A stretch of 64,000 bases of DNA, from IMG/VR virus record IMGVR_UViG_3300005329_000012, positions 25,544 through 89,543 of that record; one strand, 5' to 3'. Below, piece by piece: positions 4,313-57,550 of this stretch; the stretch's first letter is position 1, and every line of letters begins with the position of its first letter. The position numbers and the translations under genes were made by a program. The DNA is from a virus. The notes beneath the pieces were generated by a model. The model did not search any database and had not been told where the DNA came from. It was given only the letters and a program-made list of their open reading frames with translations.

Positions 4313-6352
4313 TTGGCCCTTCCCTACACAAAGCCCGGAGTCAGCATCAGCGAGGTCGTCTCGCCCCAGCTGGCGCCGGTTCTGCTCGATCCGAACGTCA
4401 TCGCCATCGTCGGTCCCGGGCGGGGCTACGAGGAGCACGTCGAGGTCTTCGTTCTGGACGACAACACGGCGGTCGCGCTCGCGGCCACGGGCGTCGACCC
4501 CTCCACCGTGGTAGTCCGCGACGCCGCGGACGTCACCCTCACCCCCTTCACCCCCTCCGTCTACGGCGTCACGCCCGGCGTGGACGTCCTGGCGGACTAC
4601 GACGTCGACACGACCGCGCTGGCCACGACCGGCCTGGTGAAGGTCGTGCGCTCCATGCAGACGGCGATCGCCAACGGCGAGCGCGTCACGGTCTACTACG
4701 AGACGAGCGGCACGCCGACCCAGGCGGACGGCGAGACCGTCCAGTTCGCCCTCTCGGCCCTCGACTCCTTCACCTTCACCCAGGGCACCGTCTCGGGCAT
4801 CCAGGACGGCACGATCTTCGTCGTCAGCGACGGCCTGCTCGTCAAGGCCACCGACTACAACCTGGACGACCCCGACGACCCGACGACCCTCGTGTGGATC
4901 AACACGTCCGCGCGCTCGAAGAAGTACCAGACCGTCTGGCTCGACTTCTCCGTGACGGGCGGCGCGACCTACACGGACGTCGCCCTCCAGCTCAACAACC
5001 TGACGCCGGTCGCGCTCCCCGCGAGCGTCGTCGGCGCCTCGCTCGTGGTCAAGACCGCGCCCGGCAACGGCGCAGCGGCCCCGGCCTCGAACGCCGTCGC
5101 CTACGACCGCTCGACGACCGAGGAGGACGACTACACGATCACCGGCACGGGCGCCGCGACGGCCATCCGCCGCTCGCAGGGCTCGACCACGATCGGCGGC
5201 CAGAGCGACAGGCTCACGGTGCGCGTCTCCTACCGGGCGACGCCGACCGACTACTTCCTCCCGACGCGCTGCTTCTCGCAGAACGACGTCGAGCAGAAGT
5301 TCGGCCCGGCCTTCGACTCGGCTGGCAACGTCCAGAACCCGCTCGCGCTCGGCACGCTGTTCGCGTTCCAGAACGGCGCGACGCAGATCGTGGCCCAGGC
5401 CCTTTTCTCGGGCACGCTCGACTCCCCGGCCGCGCCCACGGGCGCCGTCGGCGACTGGTCGGTCTCGCTGGAGCGCCTGCGCTCCGTGCAGGACATCAGC
5501 GTGATCGTCCCGATCCTGGCCTCCGGCCTCTCGACCCAGCTGAGCGACTCGCTCGCCCTCTCGGTCTTCCAGGCGGTGCAGTCGCACCTGCGCTACATGG
5601 CGGCCCAGGAGAACCAGTTCATCGTCGCCGTGCTCGGCGAGGACGGCACGGACAGCGTGCTCGCCACCCCGGCCACCCTCCAGGCGCACGCCGAGGGGCT
5701 CGGGCAGGGCTTCAGCTCGGAGGCGGTCTCGCTCGTCTCCCCGAGCGTCTACACCTACGCGAACCCGGTCACGGGCGCGACCAACGACATCGGCGGCCAG
5801 TACGTCGCCGCCGCGATCGCGGGCATGGCGGCCCGGTACCCGGTGCAGATGCCGCTCACGCGCAAGCGCGTCAACGGCGTCACGTCGCTCAAGACGGTCC
5901 GCACCGAGACCCAGAAGGACCAGGACGCCCAGAGCGGCCTCATGGTCGTGGAGAACAAGCGCGGGCGCATCCAGGTCCGCCACTCCATCACCACCAACCA
6001 GGACACGCGCGCGCAGCAGGAGTTCTCGGTCGTCCGGGCCAAGTACTGGATGATGAAGAACCTCGTCGAGGCGCTCGACACGCAGGCCGTCGGCCAGCTG
6101 ATCCTCGACGCGGAGAGCAACTTCCTCGTCCAGGTGCTCGTCTCGGCCGAGCTGGAGCTGCTCATCCAGCAGGGCGCGATCGTCTCCTACGACGGCGTGT
6201 CGGTCAGGCAGGACCCGTCCGACGCGACGGCCCTCCAGGTGCGGTTCTCGTACCTCCCGGCCTACCCGCTCAACCACATCAACATCAGCTTCTCGATCAG
6301 CGCCGCGCAGGGCGTCGAGTTCGAGCAGTCCACCGCGACGCAGGGCTTCTAA
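4313..6352 (+). CDS. Contractile tail sheath protein
   Basis: N-terminal YTKPGVSISEV; C-terminal RIQVRHSITT...EFSVVRA...VRFSYLPAYPLNHINISFS typical of sheaths; TTG start with AAGGAG SD. Confidence 0.9.
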   Translation: MALPYTKPGVSISEVVSPQLAPVLLDPNVIAIVGPGRGYEEHVEVFVLDDNTAVALAATGVDPSTVVVRDAADVTLTPFTPSVYGVTPGVDVLADYDVDTTALATTGLVKVVRSMQTAIANGERVTVYYETSGTPTQADGETVQFALSALDSFTFTQGTVSGIQDGTIFVVSDGLLVKATDYNLDDPDDPTTLVWINTSARSKKYQTVWLDFSVTGGATYTDVALQLNNLTPVALPASVVGASLVVKTAPGNGAAAPASNAVAYDRSTTEEDDYTITGTGAATAIRRSQGSTTIGGQSDRLTVRVSYRATPTDYFLPTRCFSQNDVEQKFGPAFDSAGNVQNPLALGTLFAFQNGATQIVAQALFSGTLDSPAAPTGAVGDWSVSLERLRSVQDISVIVPILASGLSTQLSDSLALSVFQAVQSHLRYMAAQENQFIVAVLGEDGTDSVLATPATLQAHAEGLGQGFSSEAVSLVSPSVYTYANPVTGATNDIGGQYVAAAIAGMAARYPVQMPLTRKRVNGVTSLKTVRTETQKDQDAQSGLMVVENKRGRIQVRHSITTNQDTRAQQEFSVVRAKYWMMKNLVEALDTQAVGQLILDAESNFLVQVLVSAELELLIQQGAIVSYDGVSVRQDPSDATALQVRFSYLPAYPLNHINISFSISAAQGVEFEQSTATQGF

Positions 6353-49885: not shown

Positions 49886-49959
49886 CGCGGGGTAGAGCAG
49901 TTTGGTAGCTCGCCAGGCTCATAACCTGGAGGTCGTGGGTTCAAATCCCACTCCCGCTA
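49886..49959 (+). tRNA. tRNA-fMet(CAT)
   Basis: Cloverleaf, C1:U72 mismatch, loop CTCATAA. Confidence 0.92.
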
Positions 49960-50154
49960 CTTGAGGTACAAGTTCGAGCCCGCCACGGCGGGCAGCCCCG
50001 CAAGGGGCGATTGAGCCCGGGCCGAGCCCTCCCGGGACCTAAAAAGGGGCTTCTGGCTTCGCTGTTACCAGGAACCGAACAGCGTGGTGGAGGCTGGCGT
50101 ACCGCGTCAGGCCCTCGCACGGGGAGGCACGGCGTCAACTGGTGCCTCAGAATA

Positions 50155-50229
50155 CAGGGTGTAGCTCAGTCTGGTGAGAGTACTCCGTTGGGGACGGAGA
50201 GGTCGTGGGTTCAAGTCCCACCACCCTGA
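50155..50229 (+). tRNA. tRNA-Pro(GGG)
   Basis: Cloverleaf, loop TTGGGGA. Confidence 0.92.
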
Positions 50230-50279
50230 TGGCGACCGCGGCCGGTAACGGCGGGGACGGCTCGGAGAGACGAGCGCAT

Positions 50280-50353
50280 CAGCGTGTAGCTCAGTCTGGC
50301 AGAGTCGCCGCTTCGGGAGCGGATGGTCGCAGGTTCGAATCCTGCCACGCTGA
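50280..50353 (+). tRNA. tRNA-Pro(CGG)
   Basis: Cloverleaf, loop TTCGGGA. Confidence 0.9.
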
Positions 50354-50412
50354 CTGGCCCCTTCGGGGGCCGTGTCCGACCGGGCGCGGGAACACCTTCC
50401 CCGGTCGGCCCT

Positions 50413-50786
50413 GGGCCAGCCATGGCTTTCGACAGTCGAGCATGGACGGCGAGATCGCAGCGGGTCGCGGCCTACCGCGCCTAGCCCCGGATCGGGCAAA
50501 CCCAAATGCGAACGACAACGATCGCATCGAGGTCGCGGACACGTTCCCGGCAGAGTGGCTCGCCGCTCCCGCCGAGTCGGCCCTCGTCGCTGCCTGACGA
50601 GCACCAACAGGTAGACCGCACCCGCCGGTAGCGGGTGACGCCCCGGAGAGACGGGTCGCCGCAGGGGTGAACGGCGCTAAACCGATGGACCCCCGAGCCC
50701 GGGGTACGCTGGCCGGGCACACAAGCTGCTAGAAGGTCTTGACGGAACCACCCGGCTGGACGCGGGTTCGACTCCCGCCTGGTCCA
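50413..50786 (+). ncRNA. ssrA: tmRNA; tag reading frame 50508-50597
   Basis: Acceptor GGGCCAG/CTGGTCC-A with G3:U70, GGCTTTCGAC 5' motif, T-arm GCGGG-TTCGACT-CCCGC, tag ANDN...ALVAA-TGA. Confidence 0.93.
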
Positions 50787-50927
50787 CTCCACTGCACCAA
50801 GCGTTGCCCCGACGGCGACGGGTCCCGGCTCTGCGGAGCACACTGCAACCGGGCCGCGGACGTGCTCACCGCGCGGTCGCTGATGAACGACGGAGGCCCG
50901 ACCAGTTCGGGGCTGAGGTCTCCACCT

Positions 50928-51001
50928 ATGCCGCTAGCTCAATCAGGCAGAGCAGGTGTCTCCAAAGCACAAGGTTCCGGGTTCGATTCCTGGGCGGCAT
51001 G
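50928..51001 (+). tRNA. tRNA-Trp(CCA)
   Basis: Cloverleaf, loop CTCCAAA. Confidence 0.88.
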
Positions 51002-51015
51002 CCTCGCACCACCCT

Positions 51016-51088
51016 GTCCGGTTCGTCTAGTGGACCAGGATGCCGCCCTCTCACGGCGGAGACACGGGATCGTAGCCCGTACTGGACA
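51016..51088 (+). tRNA. tRNA-Glu(CTC)
   Basis: Cloverleaf, loop CTCTCAC; atypical T-loop ATCGTAG. Confidence 0.85.
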
Positions 51089-51125
51089 TAGGGCACGCTC
51101 GGCCGCGAGGCCGCCGTGCCCGCAT

Positions 51126-51198
51126 TGGCGGGTAGCTCAGTCGGTAGAGCGGCTCCCTGTTAAGGAGAAGGTCGTGGGATCGAAGCCCACCCTGCCAG
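51126..51198 (+). tRNA. tRNA-Asn(GTT)
   Basis: Cloverleaf, loop CTGTTAA. Confidence 0.9.
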
Positions 51199-51246
51199 CT
51201 CACAGCGCCCTAGCAGGGGGCGCGGACACAAGTACCCTGCGCGCGT

Positions 51247-51319
51247 AGCCCGTTCGACTAGCGGACAGGTCGCCGCTCTTTCAAGGCGGTAGGCGCGGGT
51301 TCGAATCCCGCACGGGCCA
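51247..51319 (+). tRNA. tRNA-Glu(TTC)
   Basis: Cloverleaf, loop CTTTCAA; 1:72 mismatch. Confidence 0.85.
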
Positions 51320-51352
51320 TTGCCAGGCAGCACAGCAAGACCGCAGCGCCAC

Positions 51353-51423
51353 TGGGAGGTCGTCTAATGGTAGGACGCCGGGTTCTGGCCCCGGAAACTG
51401 AGGTTCGACCCCTTGCCACCCAG
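51353..51423 (+). tRNA. tRNA-Gln(CTG)
   Basis: Cloverleaf, loop TTCTGGC. Confidence 0.85.
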
Positions 51424-51435
51424 CTCGCAACACCC

Positions 51436-51508
51436 GCCTCGCTAGCTCAGTCGGTAGAGCAGGGGACTTTTAATCCCAAGGTCCTAGGTTCGAACCCTAG
51501 GCGGGGCA
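51436..51508 (+). tRNA. tRNA-Lys(TTT)
   Basis: Cloverleaf, loop CTTTTAA. Confidence 0.92.
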
Positions 51509-51660
51509 CTGCAACAACTTCTCGACGTGGCGTCCCGCGAGGGGCGCTGGCGAAGCCGTCCGACGCATCCCTGGATCGCGACCAGGCTCTCAGTGGCGGG
51601 GGAACGCGGGTTCGATTCCCGCAACGCTCCTAACCGGGCGGGCCTGGCACGTCGGGGCGC

Positions 51661-51733
51661 GGACCGCTAGCTCAGTCGGCAGAGCAGGGGCCTCTTAAGC
51701 CCAAGGTCCAGGGTTCGATCCCCTGGCGGTCCA
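51661..51733 (+). tRNA. tRNA-Lys(CTT)
   Basis: Cloverleaf, loop CTCTTAA. Confidence 0.92.
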
Positions 51734-51821
51734 CTCAGGGAGGCGCGACGGAGTTCGGCCTGACGGCCGCCGTTGGGAAGCCCCGGCCCCGGTGCCGGGT
51801 GGCCTACCCCTCCCTGTACAC

Positions 51822-51903
51822 GCTCCTGTGGCGGAACAGGTAGACGCGCTGGTTTCAGGAACCAGTGTCTTCGGACGTGGGGGTTCGGATCCCTCCGGGA
51901 GCA
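51822..51903 (+). tRNA. tRNA-Leu(CAG)
   Basis: Type II cloverleaf, loop TTCAGGA. Confidence 0.9.
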
Positions 51904-51974
51904 CTTGACAACCCCGGCTTCGGCCGGAGACGCGCGGGGCGGCGTGGGCCTTCGGGCCGGGACAGCCCCAACAT

Positions 51975-52058
51975 GCGCTCGTGGTGGAATCGGTAGACAC
52001 GTCGGCTTGAGGAGCCGGTGGCCGCGAGGTCGTGGGGGTTCAACTCCCTCCGGGCGCA
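51975..52058 (+). tRNA. tRNA-Leu(GAG)
   Basis: Type II cloverleaf, loop TTGAGGA. Confidence 0.9.
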
Positions 52059-52157
52059 CTAGGCTGGCCGTCAGACGGTGAGAACGCGGCCCGCTCAGGG
52101 AAGGCACCTACCCGGGCCGACTGCTCACCTCTTTGCCCGGACGTAGCCTTCCCGCAC

Positions 52158-52230
52158 GGCGACGTAACTCAGTCGGTAGAGTGTCTGTCTGAAAAGCAGA
52201 AGGTCGGCGGTTCAAGTCCGCCCGTCGCCA
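52158..52230 (+). tRNA. tRNA-Phe(GAA)
   Basis: Cloverleaf, loop CTGAAAA. Confidence 0.92.
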
Positions 52231-52372
52231 TCGAGAGAGGGAAACATCCCGGAAGCGGTAGTGTGTTGAGGCCGGGGCCGAACCGCCTGACGCTGGCGGG
52301 GGAATGGGAGCACCCGGGCGCACCCGGAGTCCCGGTTCGAGTCCGGGCCGCGAGACCCTCCCTCGGAACCGC

Positions 52373-52454
52373 GCCCGCCTGGCGGAACAGGTAGACGCCC
52401 CGGCTTCAAACACCGGCGCCACCAGGCGTTCGGGTTCGAGTCCCGAGGCGGGCA
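52373..52454 (+). tRNA. tRNA-Leu(CAA)
   Basis: Type II cloverleaf, loop TTCAAAC. Confidence 0.88.
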
Positions 52455-52469
52455 TAGCAAGACCAGCAT

Positions 52470-52542
52470 GGAGGACGTAGCTCAGTGGTAGAGTCGCGGG
52501 TTGTGGTCCCGTCGGTCGTGGGTTCGATCCCCACCGTCCTCC
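52470..52542 (+). tRNA. tRNA-His(GTG)
   Basis: G-1:C73, loop TTGTGGT. Confidence 0.9.
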
Positions 52543-52640
52543 CTCCCTGTGGCCCCGCATTGCCAAAGCAGAGGAACCACCGGCCCGTTACGCGGGGAAG
52601 CACCGGGCGCCGTCGGCCTGTGAACAGAACGGACGGACAC

Positions 52641-52714
52641 GTGGGAGTAGCTCAGTTCGGTAGAGTGTCGGCTTGCCAAGTCGAAGGTCGCGGGTTCGAT
52701 CCCCGTCTCCCACA
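52641..52714 (+). tRNA. tRNA-Gly(GCC)
   Basis: Cloverleaf, loop TTGCCAA. Confidence 0.9.
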
Positions 52715-52755
52715 CTGCCGCCCAGGCCCGGAAGGGAGCAAGCGGCCACAGCAGT
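52715..52755 (+). ncRNA. SRP RNA helix-8 (Ffh-binding) hairpin
   Basis: CCGCC-CAGG-CCC-GGAA-GGG-AGCA-AGCGG: conserved symmetric loop and GGAA tetraloop of SRP helix 8. Confidence 0.7.
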
Positions 52756-52847
52756 CCGCCGGGGGCACGCCGAGGCGCATGCGCCGAAGCAGCCCTAAGA
52801 CAGAGCCGCGTTCCGGTCGCGGCCTAATCCCTAAGCGGGCTGCACAC

Positions 52848-52921
52848 GCCACCGTAGCTCAGTCGGCAAGAGCGCCCGCCTTGTAAGCGGGAGGTCCGGG
52901 GCTCGACCCCCCGCGGTGGCT
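52848..52921 (+). tRNA. tRNA-Thr(TGT)
   Basis: Cloverleaf, loop CTTGTAA. Confidence 0.88.
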
Positions 52922-52930
52922 CTCGTACAC

Positions 52931-53003
52931 GCCCCGCTAGCTCAGCGGAAAGAGCGACGGGTTCCTAACCCGCAGGTCGCAGGTTCGATCCCTGCGCGGG
53001 GCA
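52931..53003 (+). tRNA. tRNA-Arg(CCT)
   Basis: Cloverleaf, loop TTCCTAA. Confidence 0.9.
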
Positions 53004-53138
53004 TCCACCGAGGCTGGGCGCGCGAGGTCCGTCGCCGGACGCGTCCGCTGCCGTAGTACCCTCTGACGACACGGGAGAGCGGCAGGCGCCTTCGGGCGCG
53101 TGAAAGGCTTAGCGGCCCGGTAGCCAACTCGGTGATTT

Positions 53139-53212
53139 GCGCTGGTAGCTCAGTCGGATAGAGCCACGGGCTTCTAACCCGTCGGTCGGGGGTTCGAGTC
53201 CCTCTCGGCGCA
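53139..53212 (+). tRNA. tRNA-Arg(TCT)
   Basis: Cloverleaf, loop CTTCTAA. Confidence 0.9.
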
Positions 53213-53311
53213 TCGTGGGTCCTCCAGGAGGGGTGACAGCGAGGACATCTGGCCGGGCATTCGTGGAGCCGCCCCTGCCCGGGAACAACTGGCGGCCTAG
53301 ACCCTCCACCC

Positions 53312-53385
53312 GCACGCATAGCTCAGTCTGGCAGAGCGACGCGCTTCCAACGCGTAGGTCAGGGGTTCGAGGCCCCTTGCGTGCT
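53312..53385 (+). tRNA. tRNA-Gly(TCC)
   Basis: Cloverleaf, loop CTTCCAA. Confidence 0.9.
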
Positions 53386-53392
53386 TCATCGC

Positions 53393-53466
53393 TGCTCCGT
53401 AGCTCAGTCAGGCAGAGCGTCCGGCTCATAACCGGCAGGTCGAGGGTTCGAGTCCCTCCGGAGCGA
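53393..53466 (+). tRNA. tRNA-Met(CAT), elongator (Ile2 not excluded)
   Basis: Cloverleaf, loop CTCATAA. Confidence 0.85.
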
Positions 53467-53669
53467 CTGGGGACAGCGGGGCGGACCGCCCGCCGGGAAC
53501 ACACTTCGCCGTGCACGGCGCAAGGCACGTCCTGGCAGCAGTGGCCACCGGACGGAATCCGATCGACCGCGCCCTACCTAACTGCTGGCCACCGGCCGAT
53601 GGTCATTCCGCCGTTCGACTCGGCGAGCCGGGGAGGGTGGCTCCCTCCAGCCAGGCCAGCAGGTCTTTC

Positions 53670-53743
53670 GCCCGTGTAGCTCAGTCAGGCAGAGCACTTC
53701 CCTCGTAAGGAAGGGGTCCGGGGTTCAACTCCCCGCGCGGGCT
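53670..53743 (+). tRNA. tRNA-Thr(CGT)
   Basis: Cloverleaf, loop CTCGTAA. Confidence 0.9.
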
Positions 53744-53909
53744 CTTGGGTGCCGGTTCGTCGATCGTGGGCCGGTCCCCAGCAGCTTCATGAAGAACCGC
53801 GCGATGCATCGCGCATAGGAGGGCCGGGGTGCGAATCCCTGTAGAGAAAACGGTTGCCTCCGAACCGGGAGCGGTTGACGGGCCAGATCACCCGCGGCGC
53901 TCCCGACCC

Positions 53910-53984
53910 GCCGACGTAGCTCAGTCAGGCCAGAGCACTTCCTCGGTAAGGAAGGGGTCCAGGGTTCAAGTCCCTGCGTCGGCT
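53910..53984 (+). tRNA. tRNA-Thr(GGT)
   Basis: Cloverleaf, loop TCGGTAA (C33). Confidence 0.88.
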
Positions 53985-53990
53985 TCGCAC

Positions 53991-54063
53991 GGCCCGTTAG
54001 CTCAGTGGACAGAGTGTCCGGCTTCGAACCGGATGGTCGGGGGTTCGACTCCCTCACGGGCCG
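53991..54063 (+). tRNA. tRNA-Arg(TCG)
   Basis: Cloverleaf, loop CTTCGAA. Confidence 0.9.
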
Positions 54064-54170
54064 CTTCCGTGGAACGTCGGGTAGGTCGCCACTGGCGGCC
54101 AGGCCCGGCGCGATCGGTTCACGCGGGAGGCAGCGCGTGAGAGGGGTGGAAGTCCCCACTGCCACAACAC

Positions 54171-54245
54171 GGACCGTTAGCTCAGCATGGTCAGAGTAGC
54201 GCCCTGTCGAGGCGATGGTCACGGGTTCGAATCCCGTACGGTCCG
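54171..54245 (+). tRNA. tRNA-Asp(GTC)
   Basis: Cloverleaf, loop CTGTCGA, G73. Confidence 0.9.
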
Positions 54246-54342
54246 CTCCGTTTCAGAACGCACGAAAACGGGTAGAAACAACCCACGGGGCCGTCTTCGG
54301 GCGCCCCGTCCAAACCAAGCACCAGGGGGCAAGACAGCAACG

Positions 54343-55044
54343 ATGGCAGACCAGAAGTACTACGACTCGACGGACACCGAGCGGACCAACCCGCTCAGCC
54401 GTCAGCAGGCGGCGCAGGTCCAGATGGGCGGACACGCGGTGGTCGACGAAGACGGCCAGCCCGCGACACTCTACGCGTACGACGTGCTCCACGGCCGCGA
54501 GGCCGTGACCGGCGAGGTATCGGCGGACCAGCTCGACCGCGAGGCCCTCAAGGCCAACGGCGGCGAGGCCCGCGACGCCTGGCAGGAGCAGGCCGACGAG
54601 AACGCCGCCGACGGCGGCGACGAGCCCGAGCGGCTCACGATCCCGCAGCTCAAGGAGCAGATCGCGGACCTCAGCGACGAGGACCTCGACAGCTACGCGA
54701 ACGACGACCGCAAGGGCGCCCAGGAGGCCGCGAAGGCCGAGCAGGCGCGCCGCGCGGAGGCCGCCGAGGCCGACGAGAAGAACGAGGACGAGAACAGCAC
54801 GGCCAGCGGCGCCGAGGGCGTCGAGGCCGCCGTCCAGGGCGTCCTGGAGTCGCAGCAGGCCGCCAGCAACCGGCCGCCCGACTCCGACGAGGCGCAGGCG
54901 CTTCTCGCGCAGGCCACCGTCGGCGGCGACAGCGGCGACGCGACCGTGGAGGGCGTCGTCGAGGACGACGGCTCCCCGGGCGACAAGGAGTTCGACCCGG
55001 ACGCCGCGGCGGACGAGAAGGACTCCGAGGACGAGGACAAGTAG
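54343..55044 (+). CDS. Highly acidic hypothetical protein inside the tRNA array
   Basis: ATG 54343 (MADQKYYDST...), D/E-rich, normal codon bias, followed by hairpin 55050-55071. Confidence 0.8.
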   Translation: MADQKYYDSTDTERTNPLSRQQAAQVQMGGHAVVDEDGQPATLYAYDVLHGREAVTGEVSADQLDREALKANGGEARDAWQEQADENAADGGDEPERLTIPQLKEQIADLSDEDLDSYANDDRKGAQEAAKAEQARRAEAAEADEKNEDENSTASGAEGVEAAVQGVLESQQAASNRPPDSDEAQALLAQATVGGDSGDATVEGVVEDDGSPGDKEFDPDAAADEKDSEDEDK

Positions 55045-55075
55045 CACACGAGGCCCCCGCGAGGGGGCCTCACCA

Positions 55076-55148
55076 GGGCGGCTAGCTCAGTAGGGAGAGC
55101 GCCGGTTTCACACGCCGTAGGTCGCAGGTTCGAGCCCTGCGCCGCCCA
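55076..55148 (+). tRNA. tRNA-Val(CAC)
   Basis: Cloverleaf, loop TTCACAC. Confidence 0.9.
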
Positions 55149-55439
55149 TCGACCGTAGGACCGTTGGCCTAAAAGCAGCCACCGGCTAAGGAGTGGCGAG
55201 GCAGGGATCGGGGACCGGAACCAGAAGGGTCGATCCGATCTTCAAAGATTCACCGGGCCTGGTAAGGGAGAAGCCCGGGCATCTGCCGCGAAGGCCCGAC
55301 GCAAGGAGAAGCGTCGGGGAGAAGCCCGGAACGGAAGCGAGCCGCATACCCTGCGCGGCGAGCCGACGAGGACTGACCGTCCTACCGGGATGCCGACTTC
55401 GCACGTGAGCCTTTGGCGTAGCAGCACACCTTCGGTCGA
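55149..55439 (+). ncRNA. Candidate novel ncRNA mimicking the 23S rRNA GTPase-associated centre (H43-H44, uL11 site) with ~220-nt insertion
   Basis: Terminal stem TCGACCGTAGG/CCTTCGGTCGA; GGACCGTTGGCCTAAAAGCAGCCACCGGCTAAGGAGTG ... GCGTAGCAGCACAC aligns with 23S nt ~1055-1104. Confidence 0.7.
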
Positions 55440-55445
55440 ACCCAT

Positions 55446-55680
55446 TCGAAGGGGAAGACACGCGCGGCGCGGTGCTTCGAGACGCGTCGAGGAAAGTCAG
55501 GCCACCTGCCGCCCGGGGACGGGACGGCAAACGCGCGGCGACCGAGCGGGAGGGCTCCGGCCCGTCTCACCGCCAGGACCGGCGGGGTGCAACCCCAAGC
55601 GCGGCGCCCAGACCGGGCGTCCAGGTAGGGGGCACAGATGGATGCGTGTCCTAGACAGAAGCCTGCTTACGAACCTTCGA
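55446..55680 (+). ncRNA. rnpB: Minimal RNase P RNA
   Basis: P1 TCGAAGG/CCTTCGA, P2 GACACGC/GCGTGTC, CR-I GAGGAAAGTCAGG, CR-IV AGATGGATG, CR-V ACAGAAGCCTGCTTA; P4 pairing has a compensatory change. Confidence 0.88.
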
Positions 55681-55729
55681 GACACGGTCCCTAACCGCTT
55701 AGGCTAACAACCGCGGGGCGGGGCCTCCA

Positions 55730-55803
55730 GACCGCGTAGCTCAGTCGGGACGAGCGCCACGTTGACATCGTGGAGGTCGGTGGTTCGAGCCCACCCGTGG
55801 TCA
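55730..55803 (+). tRNA. tRNA-Val(GAC)
   Basis: Cloverleaf, loop TTGACAT. Confidence 0.9.
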
Positions 55804-55809
55804 CTGCAA

Positions 55810-55882
55810 GTCCCAGTAGCTCAGAGGACAGAGTGCAGCCCTGCGAAGGCTGAGGTCGGCGGTTCGATCCCGCCCTGGGACG
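55810..55882 (+). tRNA. tRNA-Arg(GCG)
   Basis: Cloverleaf, loop CTGCGAA. Confidence 0.9.
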
Positions 55883-55897
55883 CTACACTTTGGGGCA

Positions 55898-56100
55898 TGG
55901 CGAAGAAGATCAACGCGAAGAAGGAGAAGGCCCTCCGCAACGAGGCGTACGCGAAGCAGTTCCGCAAGCGGACGCCCGGCCGGAAGGACCGGGACAAGAA
56001 GCGGCTCGGCGGCCCCTGGGGCAACTGGTGCCGCATCAAGGGGCACCCGCAGAACTGCGGTTGCGTGTACGGCGTAGGGACTGGTAGCTCAGCTGGTTAG
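55898..56100 (+). CDS. Small basic protein with C-x4-H-x3-C-x-C tail
   Basis: TACACT -10 just upstream of ATG; MAKKINAKKEKALRNEAYAKQFRKR...; 3' end overlaps tRNA-Ile. Confidence 0.6.
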
Positions 56101-56151
56101 AGTGGCGCTCTGATAAGGCGCAGGTCGGTGGTTCGAGTCCACCCCAGTCCA
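56078..56151 (+). tRNA. tRNA-Ile(GAT)
   Basis: Cloverleaf, loop CTGATAA. Confidence 0.92.
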
Positions 56152-56252
56152 TCGGAAGGTAGCTCAGACCCCATGCGAGCGCAATGGCGTGTCGCGGAGA
56201 GCTGGCCCTAACGGGTCGAGACGGCGCGGTGGGAGGCGCCCCTTCCGTACAG

Positions 56253-56323
56253 GGCGACGTGGCCGAGCGGTTAGGCGGTTGGCTGCAACCCTTCACACAC
56301 AGGTTCGAGTCCTGTCGTCGCCT
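56253..56323 (+). tRNA. tRNA-Cys(GCA)
   Basis: Cloverleaf, loop CTGCAAC, U73; two U-U pairs in anticodon stem. Confidence 0.8.
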
Positions 56324-56434
56324 CTAGGTGGCCCCTACGCGGCCACCAGTGCCCCACTCTGGCCCACCGAGGGCCGGGGCGGGGAGTTCCATTGCTTCGC
56401 GAGGTCGGCGCCAGAGGCGCCCACTCTCGTGCTC

Positions 56435-56507
56435 GGGCCGGTAGCTCAGTCGGGAGAGCGACGCACTCGCACTGCGTAGGTCAAGGGTTCGACTCCCTTC
56501 CGGTCCA
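56435..56507 (+). tRNA. tRNA-Ala(CGC)
   Basis: G3:U70, loop CTCGCAC. Confidence 0.92.
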
Positions 56508-56599
56508 CTGCTCCGTCGGGGTACCCGGGTGGTTCCCGGGACTGTCTGAGGAGCGCCCTCTCGGCAGAGGCCGCGTAACCGCGCGGTGTCGGGAGGCCC

Positions 56600-56672
56600 G
56601 GGGCGTTAGCTCAGCTGGGAGAGCATTTGGCTGGCAGCCAAAAGGTCGAGGGTTCAAGTCCCTCACGCTCCA
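56600..56672 (+). tRNA. tRNA-Ala(GGC)
   Basis: G3:U70, loop CTGGCAG. Confidence 0.92.
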
Positions 56673-56818
56673 TGGGTGATCCGGGTTCGAGTCCCGGGCG
56701 CACCTGCCCCGATAGCAGGCCCCGCGAAGGGCCGCAAGCCATGGCTGGCGGGCAAACGTCGGCCCGGTTCGCGCCGGTCCCGGCGGGGAGCGTTGGTGCA
56801 ACGGCAGCACACCCTCAC
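56673..56818 (+). ncRNA. Circularly permuted tRNA-like RNA (T-arm first, D-arm last, no anticodon loop)
   Basis: T-arm 56681-97, 3' acceptor strand 56698-704, then 5' acceptor strand 56787-93 and D-arm GTGC-AACGGCA-GCAC 56796-810. Confidence 0.6.
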
Positions 56819-56906
56819 GGAAGGGCTAGCCGACAGTCGGCGACGGCACCCGGTTGCTAACCGGACGAGGCGCAAGCCCTTGAGGGATCATCCCCCTCCC
56901 CTTCCG
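56819..56906 (+). tRNA. tRNA-Ser(GCT), atypical
   Basis: Type II cloverleaf, loop TTGCTAA, T-loop ATCATCC. Confidence 0.78.
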
Positions 56907-56957
56907 CTCGTTTCGACCGCCCCTACCCCGGGTACAATCACGGGGGAGGAGGCAAAC

Positions 56958-57128
56958 ATGGGAGTGATCGGAGTCATCCTGCGCGTGGTCGCGTTCGTGC
57001 TGTTCGTCGTGGCGGGGGTCAACGAGACCCTGCTCAACCAGCCGCCCGCCGACCTCGTCGCATTCGGCCTGGCCGCCTGGGTCCTCGCCGTCCTGCTGGA
57101 CGGCGTCGACGTCGGCCGCCTCGGCTGA
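56958..57128 (+). CDS. Small two-TM membrane protein
   Basis: TACAAT -10 at 56933, GGAGGAGG SD, two hydrophobic helices. Confidence 0.75.
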   Translation: MGVIGVILRVVAFVLFVVAGVNETLLNQPPADLVAFGLAAWVLAVLLDGVDVGRLG

Positions 57129-57159
57129 GACACGGACTGGCCGCCCCTAGCGGCCACAC

Positions 57160-57248
57160 GGAAGGGCAAGCCGACGGTTGGCTGACGGCACCGGATTCGA
57201 AACCCGGCGAGGCGAGAGCCCTTGTGAGTTCGATCCTCACTCCTTCCG
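57160..57248 (+). tRNA. tRNA-Ser(CGA)
   Basis: Type II cloverleaf, loop TTCGAAA. Confidence 0.82.
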
Positions 57249-57253
57249 CTCAC

Positions 57254-57342
57254 GGAGAGGCAACCCGACGGCTGGCGACGGGACCCGCTTGGAAAGCGGA
57301 CGAGCCTTTGCGGCCTTGCGGGATCGTTCCCCGCCTTCTCCG
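57254..57342 (+). tRNA. tRNA-Ser(GGA)
   Basis: Type II cloverleaf, loop TTGGAAA. Confidence 0.82.
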
Positions 57343-57356
57343 CTCGCGTAAGGGGT

Positions 57357-57470
57357 GTGAGGATCATCCCGACGCAGAAGGGTCCCGACCGGGACCTGGC
57401 AATCCTCCTCTGGACCACGGTCGCCGTCCTGGCGACGGTGATCTTCGTCGCGTACCACGCATTCCACTGA
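57357..57470 (+). CDS. 37-aa single-TM peptide
   Basis: GTG after CGTAAGGGGT motif; MRIIPTQKGPDRDLAILLWTTVAVLATVIFVAYHAFH; stop abuts tRNA-Tyr. Confidence 0.5.
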   Translation: MRIIPTQKGPDRDLAILLWTTVAVLATVIFVAYHAFH

Positions 57471-57550
57471 GCCGACGCTGGGGCTGGGACCCCGACCTGG
57501 CTGTAAACCAGGCGTCTCGTACTAGGCAGGTTCGATTCCTGACGGCGGCA
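57471..57550 (+). tRNA. tRNA-Tyr(GTA), divergent
   Basis: CCTGG-CTGTAAA-CCAGG anticodon arm, T-arm, acceptor with one mismatch. Confidence 0.75.

Follow-up and report, generated by a model that had tools for sequence, protein, structure and literature searches.

A candidate free-standing RNA copy of the uL11/thiostrepton domain of 23S rRNA in phage tRNA arrays

The base of the uL11 stalk is the site of EF-G, EF-Tu-tRNA, RelA, thiopeptides and at least one interbacterial toxin on the ribosome, and its isolated rRNA domain with uL11 has become a classic in vitro system. Munishkin and Wool reportedly found in 1997 that oligoribonucleotide mimics of the thiostrepton and sarcin-ricin domains bind EF-G in vitro, so that a domain taken off the ribosome may still be recognised by a translation factor; those mimics were laboratory constructs, whereas the RNA described here belongs to a natural gene family. 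Off-ribosome imitation of an r-protein's rRNA site also occurs in r-protein mRNA leaders (the L10 leader RF00557 and the L1, S8 and L20 sites), but these are cellular, act in cis upstream of r-protein genes and copy part of the site only. The isolated 58-60-nt domain folds autonomously, L11 binding requires its folded tertiary form, and thiostrepton binds the folded isolated domain together with L11 (PMC6239185). The ACT domain of RelA contacts the tip of H43 (PMC5291266). Among phage RNAs, the large, ornate ROOL and GOLLD RNAs are structured and often lie beside tRNA genes (PMC12286853), and pseudo-ToxI is likewise a phage-encoded non-coding RNA, a small repeat antitoxin mimic with a demonstrated mechanism (PMC3475682). 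Like pseudo-ToxI, the present RNA may imitate a host RNA; unlike it, it copies a ribosomal domain and its partner is putative.

We analysed a 64-kb stretch of DNA (the window), which is the last 64 kb of an 89.5-kb contig of a large soil phage in IMG/VR with 69% GC and an estimated completeness of ~56%. Protein genes of the window include those for a DnaE-type polymerase, a primase, an SNF2 helicase and a ribonucleotide reductase, together with a tail sheath and baseplate proteins. The tail sheath is ~34% identical to those of the large actinobacterial myoviruses (Mycobacterium phages Myrna and Phabba, Rhodococcus phage E3 and Gordonia phage Skog), and this distant protein similarity, together with base composition, suggests a high-GC actinobacterium as the probable host. 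No gene for uL11, RelA/SpoT, MazG or RnpA was found in the ~56% of the phage genome that the record covers. A co-oriented array of 36 tRNA genes and a tmRNA occupies 49886-57550, and within it a 581-nt gap separates tRNA-Val(cac) (55076-55148, + strand; predicted by ARAGORN, Rfam tRNA score 62.2 bits, no encoded CCA) from tRNA-Val(gac) (55730-55804). A 291-base non-coding RNA gene lies in this gap at 55149-55439 on the + strand. Its first base is the base right after the discriminator of the CCA-less tRNA-Val(cac), so tRNA 3' processing would create the 5' end of the RNA. On the 3' side the neighbour is a miniature RNase P RNA, whose match begins at 55445, with five bases (ACCCA) between the terminal stem of the element and the P1 helix. 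Open reading frames that overlap the element have a flat codon-position GC of 0.64-0.68, compared with a GC3 of 0.89-0.96 in the real genes of the window, and by this measure the region is non-coding.

The first-pass annotation of the window had described 55149-55439 as a mimic of the uL11/thiostrepton domain of 23S rRNA, and all the features that it listed were located in the sequence (all on the + strand; numbers of the form A1067 are E. coli 23S positions). The terminal H42-like stem is formed by 55149-55159 (1045-1055) and the complementary 55429-55439 (1104-1114); its 11 positions make 10 Watson-Crick pairs and one U.U, in agreement with the single mismatch originally reported. A1056 is at 55160 and is followed by H43 (1057-1081) at 55161-55185, with the loop CUAAAAGCA and A1067 at 55171, by the junction C-UAA-G (1082-1086) at 55186-55190 and by GAGU (G1087-U1090), the 5' strand of lower H44, at 55191-55194. 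The variable insert of 217 nt (55195-55411) exits H44 between 1090 and 1091, and a UUUG linker (55412-55415) stands between its closing stem and G1091. The sequence GCGUAGCAGCACAC at 55416-55429 supplies G1091-C1104; within it, upper H44 (G1091-C1100 and C1092-G1099), the loop GUAGCA with A1095 at 55420, and A1101, C1102 and A1103 occupy 55416-55428. The H43 loop with A1067, the C-UAA-G junction and the GUAGCA loop are therefore all in place as had been claimed. The compensatory stem changes described earlier stand at the base of H43, where the compensated pairs C1057-G1081 and C1058-G1080 replace A-U and U-A, but the H44 stem GUGC/GCAC was wrong: the correct pairs are G1087-C1102, U1090-A1101, G1091-C1100 and C1092-G1099, with A1088 and G1089 unpaired as in the rRNA fold, and the G after U1090 belongs to the insert, where it opens a closing stem that covaries in the family as a whole. 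The 21-nt H43 motif matches GTTGGCYTARAAGCAGCCAYC exactly at 55163-55183 and the 18-nt 3' motif matches TTTGGCGTARNAGCACAC exactly at 55412-55429; each occurs once in the 64-kb window with up to two mismatches allowed, none of 100 shuffles matched either, and the number expected by chance is 0. The minimum free energy of the whole element (z -1.6 vs shuffles) is uninformative at 65% GC.

The phage RNA has the helices of the 23S GTPase-associated centre (the top of H42, H43 and H44; E. coli 1051-1108), the loops 1065-1073 and 1093-1098 with A1067 and A1095, and the 1082-1086 pair. It also has U1060, A1088, G1071, C1072, G1091-C1100 and C1092-G1099, which, from the crystal structures, are presumably tertiary contacts. 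It differs in being free-standing in a tRNA array without surrounding rRNA, in the interruption of H44 between 1090 and 1091 by an arm and the UUUG linker, in U1090-A1101 replacing the rRNA arrangement, in an H42 cut down to a plain helix of 9-11 bp and in the free variation of positions 1096-1097. The real 23S copies that we examined read GAGUGCGUAA or GAAAGCGUAA, without a UUUG linker, and GAGUGCGUAAYAGCUCAC or GAAAGCGUAAUAGCUCAC, uninterrupted; they have A1096 and U or C at 1097. C1082-G1086 is also present in some real rRNAs (Chloroflexota and several archaea), so a covarying 1082-1086 pair is a property of the genuine domain as well. One 23S comparison locus, L234, had been sought as actinobacterial and turned out to be of the proteobacterial type.

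Among the outcomes named in advance as counting against the mimic were an absence of homologues that keep both halves and a match to an already characterised Rfam family with an unrelated function. Homologues with both halves are in fact numerous. We scanned IMG/VR twice by exact pattern, and the scan anchored on H43 returned at least 117 contigs and the scan anchored on the 3' half at least 118; positions inside each search pattern are fixed by that search, and the true size and diversity of the family exceed the sample. IMG/VR and metagenomes together gave at least 79 distinct complete elements of one architecture, with the insert always between 1090 and 1091. Among the matches listed from the H43 scan, only L099 and L112 run on as real 23S. 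In the remaining listed contigs the divergence from 23S begins right after GAGU, and nearly all of them have xxUUUGGCGUARNAGCACAC 50-374 nt downstream, followed by the reverse complement of the 5' flank. The scan anchored on the 3' half alone brought in 5' halves with more varied H43 stems among the matches listed. As to the second outcome, Rfam 15 has no family over 55149-55439, either at gathering score or at E up to 10, and 20 other loci of the family gave nothing but tRNA matches at gathering score. A full-text literature search found no published description of a phage-borne or free-standing mimic of the GTPase-associated centre. This is, on the sequence comparisons made, a large phage RNA family absent from the databases and literature searched. 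We know of no ROOL or GOLLD RNA that copies a ribosomal domain, and neither of these families matches the window element in Rfam at E up to 10. It also stands apart from the r-protein leaders: it is apparently a processed stand-alone RNA that copies the whole tertiary domain, no r-protein gene is nearby, the next genes are the RNase P-like RNA and tRNAs, and no leader family matches in Rfam.

The window copy agrees with the family in the following traits. Its 55158-55194 (GGACCGUUGGCCUAAAAGCAGCCACCGGCUAAGGAGU) fits the 5'-half pattern GG-R-NN-GUUGGCYUARAAGCAGCCAYC-NN-YUAAR-GAGU, and 55412-55429 fits the 3'-half pattern UUUG-GCGUARNAGCACAC with A1101 opposite U1090. Its terminal stem of 11 positions starts at G1055-C1104, like the stem of ~9 bp or more that marks the family, and the arm lies exactly between 1090 and 1091, with its first bases pairing with the bases before UUUG. 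Among the listed members the linker is UUUG in 71 of 79 and UUUA in 7, and GUAGCA, the H44 loop of the window copy, is the second commonest variant (15/79). Pseudomonas phage pf16 and Aeromonas phage 4_4572, both of which are cultured, each carry a complete, unannotated copy in their tRNA region. Partial matches, to the 5' half, were found in Xanthomonas phage XacN1, Ralstonia phage RSP15, Acinetobacter phage ME3, Rak2-like jumbo phages and one Paenibacillus phage, and there are partial matches in Erwinia phages as well. Contigs binned with bacterial genomes also carry members, for example a 24-tRNA array in a Chloroflexota MAG. In BLASTN against GenBank phages, the 701-nt region matched tRNAs only, while the 42-nt 5' half of the window copy matched one phage and the consensus 5' half matched more. 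The only other copy of the exact window sequence among the matches listed from the exact-pattern scans is a 1.2-kb soil metagenome fragment (L122). The window thus extends the family to a phage related to the actinobacterial myoviruses, with the RNA beside a miniature RNase P gene.

To assess conservation in the 5' half without bias from the search pattern, we used the listed sample of 69 elements recovered by way of the 3' half. G1055, G1059, U1060, G1063, C1072, C1075, A1077 and C1079 are invariant (69/69), as are A1085, G1087, A1088, G1089 and U1090; the base is retained in 68 of 69 sequences at G1071 and in 62 of 69 at A1067, and the 1060-1078 mismatch persists as U.U or U.C. The window copy has the consensus base at every invariant or near-invariant family position that is common to rRNA. 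We take these near-invariant nucleotides to be the base triples and long-range contacts of the domain in the L11-RNA crystal structures.

Covariation supports every variable helix of the family as judged from these sequences. Among the 79 listed members, the terminal stem (1047-1055/1104-1112) is paired in 67-97% of sequences per position, with 4-6 pair types at most positions; 1058-1080 is paired in 100% with five pair types, 1057-1081 in 97% with two, and 1082-1086 in 95% with three (U-A, C-G and A-U). The first four pairs of the insert closing stem are formed in 100, 97, 89 and 70% with 4-6 types. For all of these the observed pairing was reached in none of 1000 shuffles, and the four pairs of H44 never vary and are uninformative for covariation. 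We also aligned 19 compact members with MAFFT and imposed the specified structure. Pairing is then seen in 92% of cells vs 69% in shuffled alignments, both partners vary in 17 of the 25 pairs, and covariation scores 0.605 compared with 0.153 when shuffled and at most 0.194 with slid partners; the terminal stem behaves here as it does among the 79. A covariance model (R1) was built from 19 other members with the window copy left out. It recovered the 5' half of the window copy at 37.6 bits (E 2e-11) and the 3' half as a separate match at 11.9 bits (E 0.017); the halves were not joined, because the 217-nt insert exceeds the tolerance of the model. Comparative evidence from sequence thus supports a structured, free-standing non-coding RNA that copies the uL11/thiostrepton domain.

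We consider the chances about even that this RNA adopts the GTPase-associated-centre fold off the ribosome and binds free uL11. The RNA would be co-transcribed with the tRNA array and freed by the tRNA-processing cuts; its two ends would reassemble the top of H42, H43 and H44, with the variable arm leaving H44, and the folded RNA would bind free uL11, which recognises exactly that fold. A highly expressed copy might then withhold uL11 from new ribosomes, or the uL11-RNA surface might be offered to docking factors such as the RelA ACT domain, EF-G or tRNA elbows. Strains without uL11 (relC/rplK) are relaxed, and for the phage the most plausible benefit would be that the stringent response, as far as it depends on uL11, is weakened in the infected cell. 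The window copy keeps the nucleotides of the tertiary fold recognised by uL11, as a uL11-binding RNA is expected to do. Against this reading, the extra arm enters H44 itself, the ~56%-complete record has no uL11, RelA/SpoT or MazG gene to connect the phage with the stringent response, and a 93%-complete relative does without the RNA. The free variation at 1096-1097 and the loss of A1067 in ~10% of members suggest that the factor-facing surface is less constrained than in the ribosome. Binding of uL10, which had been offered as a further possibility, now looks less likely, because the terminal stem covaries freely and has no conserved H42 feature beyond G1054/G1055. If uL11 binding is correct, the RNA would represent a new viral way to manipulate translation or the stringent response, and a natural case in which an entire rRNA tertiary domain has become a gene of its own.

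A broader version of uL11 binding, which we regard as tentative and rather unlikely, sees in the whole tRNA operon a set of tools that copy host translation RNAs in miniature. Besides the copy of the GTPase-associated centre, the set would comprise a tmRNA, the tip of SRP helix 8 and an RNase P RNA that lacks most of the specificity domain. Loaded with host uL11, the copy would serve as an off-ribosome platform on which RelA or a translational GTPase is caught, so that either the stringent response or a defence that senses ribosomes is turned off during infection.

Alternatively, the RNA may be a decoy substrate or target that sequesters a host enzyme or toxin directed against this centre (an ADP-ribosyltransferase, a nuclease or a methyltransferase) and so protects the ribosomes; we judge this possible, though unlikely. 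An enzyme that attacks the site does exist, since the Tre23 toxin ADP-ribosylates 23S rRNA within 1095-1098 of H44 (PMC8661411), but 1096-1097, inside the target stretch of Tre23, are the very positions that vary freely in the family. The use of RNA mimics by phages against abortive-infection toxins, as with the ToxI mimic (PMC3475682), provides a precedent. A decoy might also be read into the sarcin-ricin-loop-like AGUACGAGAGGA hairpin in the insert of one member (L121; 1/79 among those listed). The window itself has no sarcin-ricin-like motif. The RNA is distributed patchily among close relatives, as an accessory counter-defence gene might be: a related 150-kb contig, 93% complete, keeps a syntenic tRNA array and the RNase P-like gene and has no copy of the RNA anywhere, the matching site being tRNA-Val(tac), a 116-nt spacer and tRNA-Ile(tat). 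Since this 93%-complete relative lacks it, the lineage can do without the RNA, which is thus an accessory gene, gained and lost within tRNA arrays. Against a decoy, the literature searched yielded no anti-phage defence system that targets this centre, and to our knowledge none is known; moreover, the hosts of the phages that carry the family are very diverse, and a partner common to all of them is therefore more likely than one particular toxin.

It is improbable, in our estimate, that the ribosomal domain is a mere handle, recruiting uL11 or folding stably, and that the phage-specific insert is the working part. The inserts range from 42 to 366 nt (median 132; n=79 among the matches listed) and are unrelated between lineages, and 24 of the 79 listed share the module CACCCCGnAAnnGGUAAGG at a fixed distance, 18 nt before the insert end; such a module, like the sarcin-ricin-like hairpin of the single insert mentioned above, is what a working insert might contain. 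However, the inserts of the most compact members (42-59 nt) hold little beyond a hairpin, which leaves the ribosomal core as the constant and most conserved part. The window insert also argues against a handle: an nhmmer search with the profile of the module (24 members) gave no match in it, and its predicted minimum free energy of -91.9 kcal/mol (z -1.3) is no more stable than that of shuffles. The ~220-nt insertion in helix 44 noted at the outset is real (217 nt), but it is not peculiar to the window copy, since all members have one.

We find it very improbable that the element is a cis-acting spacer, useful only for processing or stabilising the polycistronic tRNA transcript and idle after excision. 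The terminal stem abuts tRNA ends in the window and in many members, as a spacer would: in 17 of the 78 other listed members the upstream tRNA ends at most 60 nt before the terminal stem, often 0-6 nt, and all tRNA genes that lie within 1.5 kb of a member (45 of 78 have one) share its strand. No tRNA was found within 1.5 kb in the other 33 listed members, however, and a generic spacer needs none of the exact tertiary-fold nucleotides of the ribosomal domain.

Still less credible is a thiopeptide sponge, in which the RNA and uL11 would bind the thiostrepton-class antibiotics of soil actinomycetes so that translation continues. The window copy keeps A1067 and A1095, the two adenines of the thiostrepton site, its host is probably a high-GC actinobacterium, and the isolated domain with L11 does bind the drug (PMC6239185), but A1067 is replaced in ~10% of the members listed, and the family is common in phages of Gram-negative bacteria, with the complete element also in those of Pseudomonas and Aeromonas, which makes this early suggestion less likely. 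Finally, the 5' half is close to real 23S sequence, but a functionless, decaying fragment of host 23S rRNA is scarcely conceivable, since covariation throughout the family refutes it to the extent that sequence can do so. In addition, a 217-nt insert splits H44, no rRNA adjoins the element on either side, no Rfam rRNA family (LSU, SSU) matches anywhere in the 64-kb window, BLAST against loci carrying real 23S matched the core and no further rRNA sequence (so that the earlier statement that this is no captured rRNA fragment holds), the insert site, UUUG linker, U1090-A1101 and plain terminal helix are family features absent from rRNA, and the compensated stems are common to dozens of unrelated phages.

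As for the insert of the window copy, BLAST against the 78 other members matched the core halves only, and the interior is without comparative support because the only relative with the same sequence is the soil fragment. Its closing stem pairs GGC (55195-55197) with GCC (55409-55411), and the arm base GGC-GA.../...GA-GCC would allow a tandem G.A beside the three Watson-Crick pairs; similar G.A mismatches are found at the same level in other members. Two candidate features were set aside: the heptamer GGUAAGG of this insert as a shared module, a chance match given the negative module profile, and Shine-Dalgarno-like bait loops, as such 5-mers are not enriched in the window insert or the family (z -1.4). 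Within the GC-rich interior, hairpins are predicted at 55295-55318 and 55369-55383, and GGAGAAGC, from which the bait loops had been proposed, occurs three times within 59 nt.

The GTPase-associated-centre mimic (55149-55439, plus strand), located directly 3' of tRNA-Val(cac), is followed after 5 nt by a miniature RNase P RNA gene (55445-55685, plus strand). The Rfam model RF00010 matches this gene from end to end with a score of 46.4 bits (E 3.7e-13), which does not reach the gathering score of 100. P1, P3 and the P4 strands (GAGGAAAGUC...ACAGAA) are retained, as is the GGU motif for pairing with the CCA end of tRNA, whereas the specificity domain has for the most part been replaced by ~63 nt. 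The syntenic array of the phage contig L119 contains a homologue in which P1 and P3 show compensated changes. No RnpA gene was found in the phage record that carries the window, and a literature search for a miniature phage RNase P RNA found no paper.

L119 (IMGVR_UViG_3300032401_000002; 150 kb, 93% complete; region 4704-5330) is the closest relative among the matches listed. Its tRNA order is identical to that of the window and the RNase P-like gene is present; no copy of the GTPase-associated-centre mimic occurs anywhere in the L119 record. At the site corresponding to the element, L119 has tRNA-Val(tac) and tRNA-Ile(tat), separated by a spacer of 116 nt.

The tRNA array of the window encodes further genes. 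ARAGORN calls a tmRNA gene at 50413-50787 (plus strand) with a predicted tag peptide ANDNDRIEVADTFPAEWLAAPAESALVAA; the Rfam match to it covers the 3' end only, at 24 bits. Directly after tRNA-Gly lies a hairpin (52715-52755, plus strand; GCCGCCCAGGCCCGGAAGGGAGCAAGCGGC) whose sequence resembles that of the SRP RNA helix 8 tip (AGG...GGAA...AGCA); it has no Rfam match at E <= 0.01. Just upstream of tRNA-Val, a gene at 54187-55044 (plus strand, GC3 0.89) encodes a very acidic 285-aa protein with no match in Pfam or PHROG.

The variable insert that enters H44 of the element carries repeats in the window and differs among the other family members. Five copies of the octamer GGAGAAGC occur in the 64-kb window, three of them inside the insert within 59 nt (55267-55325, plus strand), and two of the insert copies are in or adjoining predicted hairpin loops. 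Shine-Dalgarno-like enrichment was tested for the GGAGAAGC repeat idea and none was found. In 24 of the 79 distinct members among the matches listed (the complete copies of Pseudomonas phage pf16, L205:695-888, and Aeromonas phage 4_4572, L206:696-984, and 22 more loci), the insert ends on its 3' side with a conserved module. It consists of AGUR, ~8 nt and CACCCCGnAAnnGGUAAGG, ends 18 nt before the UUUG linker, and is paired on its 5' side with GGGAC(A/G)AAG-like starts. The member L121:4906-5324 (minus strand), from a metagenome contig of 32% GC, has a 349-nt insert with CCACCAUAGUACGAGAGGAAAUGUGGG, which closely copies the sarcin-ricin loop; such a copy is found in this member alone among the 79 (among the matches listed).

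Two compact members of the family, L209:1781-1930 and L225:1339-1486 (both minus strand), have an insert of 80 nt and come from contigs binned as Chloroflexota/Anaerolineae MAGs. These contigs carry a phage-like array of at least 24 tRNA genes with encoded CCA, in which the family member sits between two tRNA-Ser genes, and its H43 base (C-C/G-G) is identical to that of the window's copy. In genuine 23S rRNAs, positions 1082-1090 (E. coli numbering) read CUAAGGAGU in Dehalococcoidia and other Chloroflexota, in 'Bacterium 3DAC' (complete genome) and in several archaea (real 23S genes L207, L210-L212, L215-L217, L221, L224 and L227), and thus the C1082-G1086 variant of the phage family also exists in real ribosomes.
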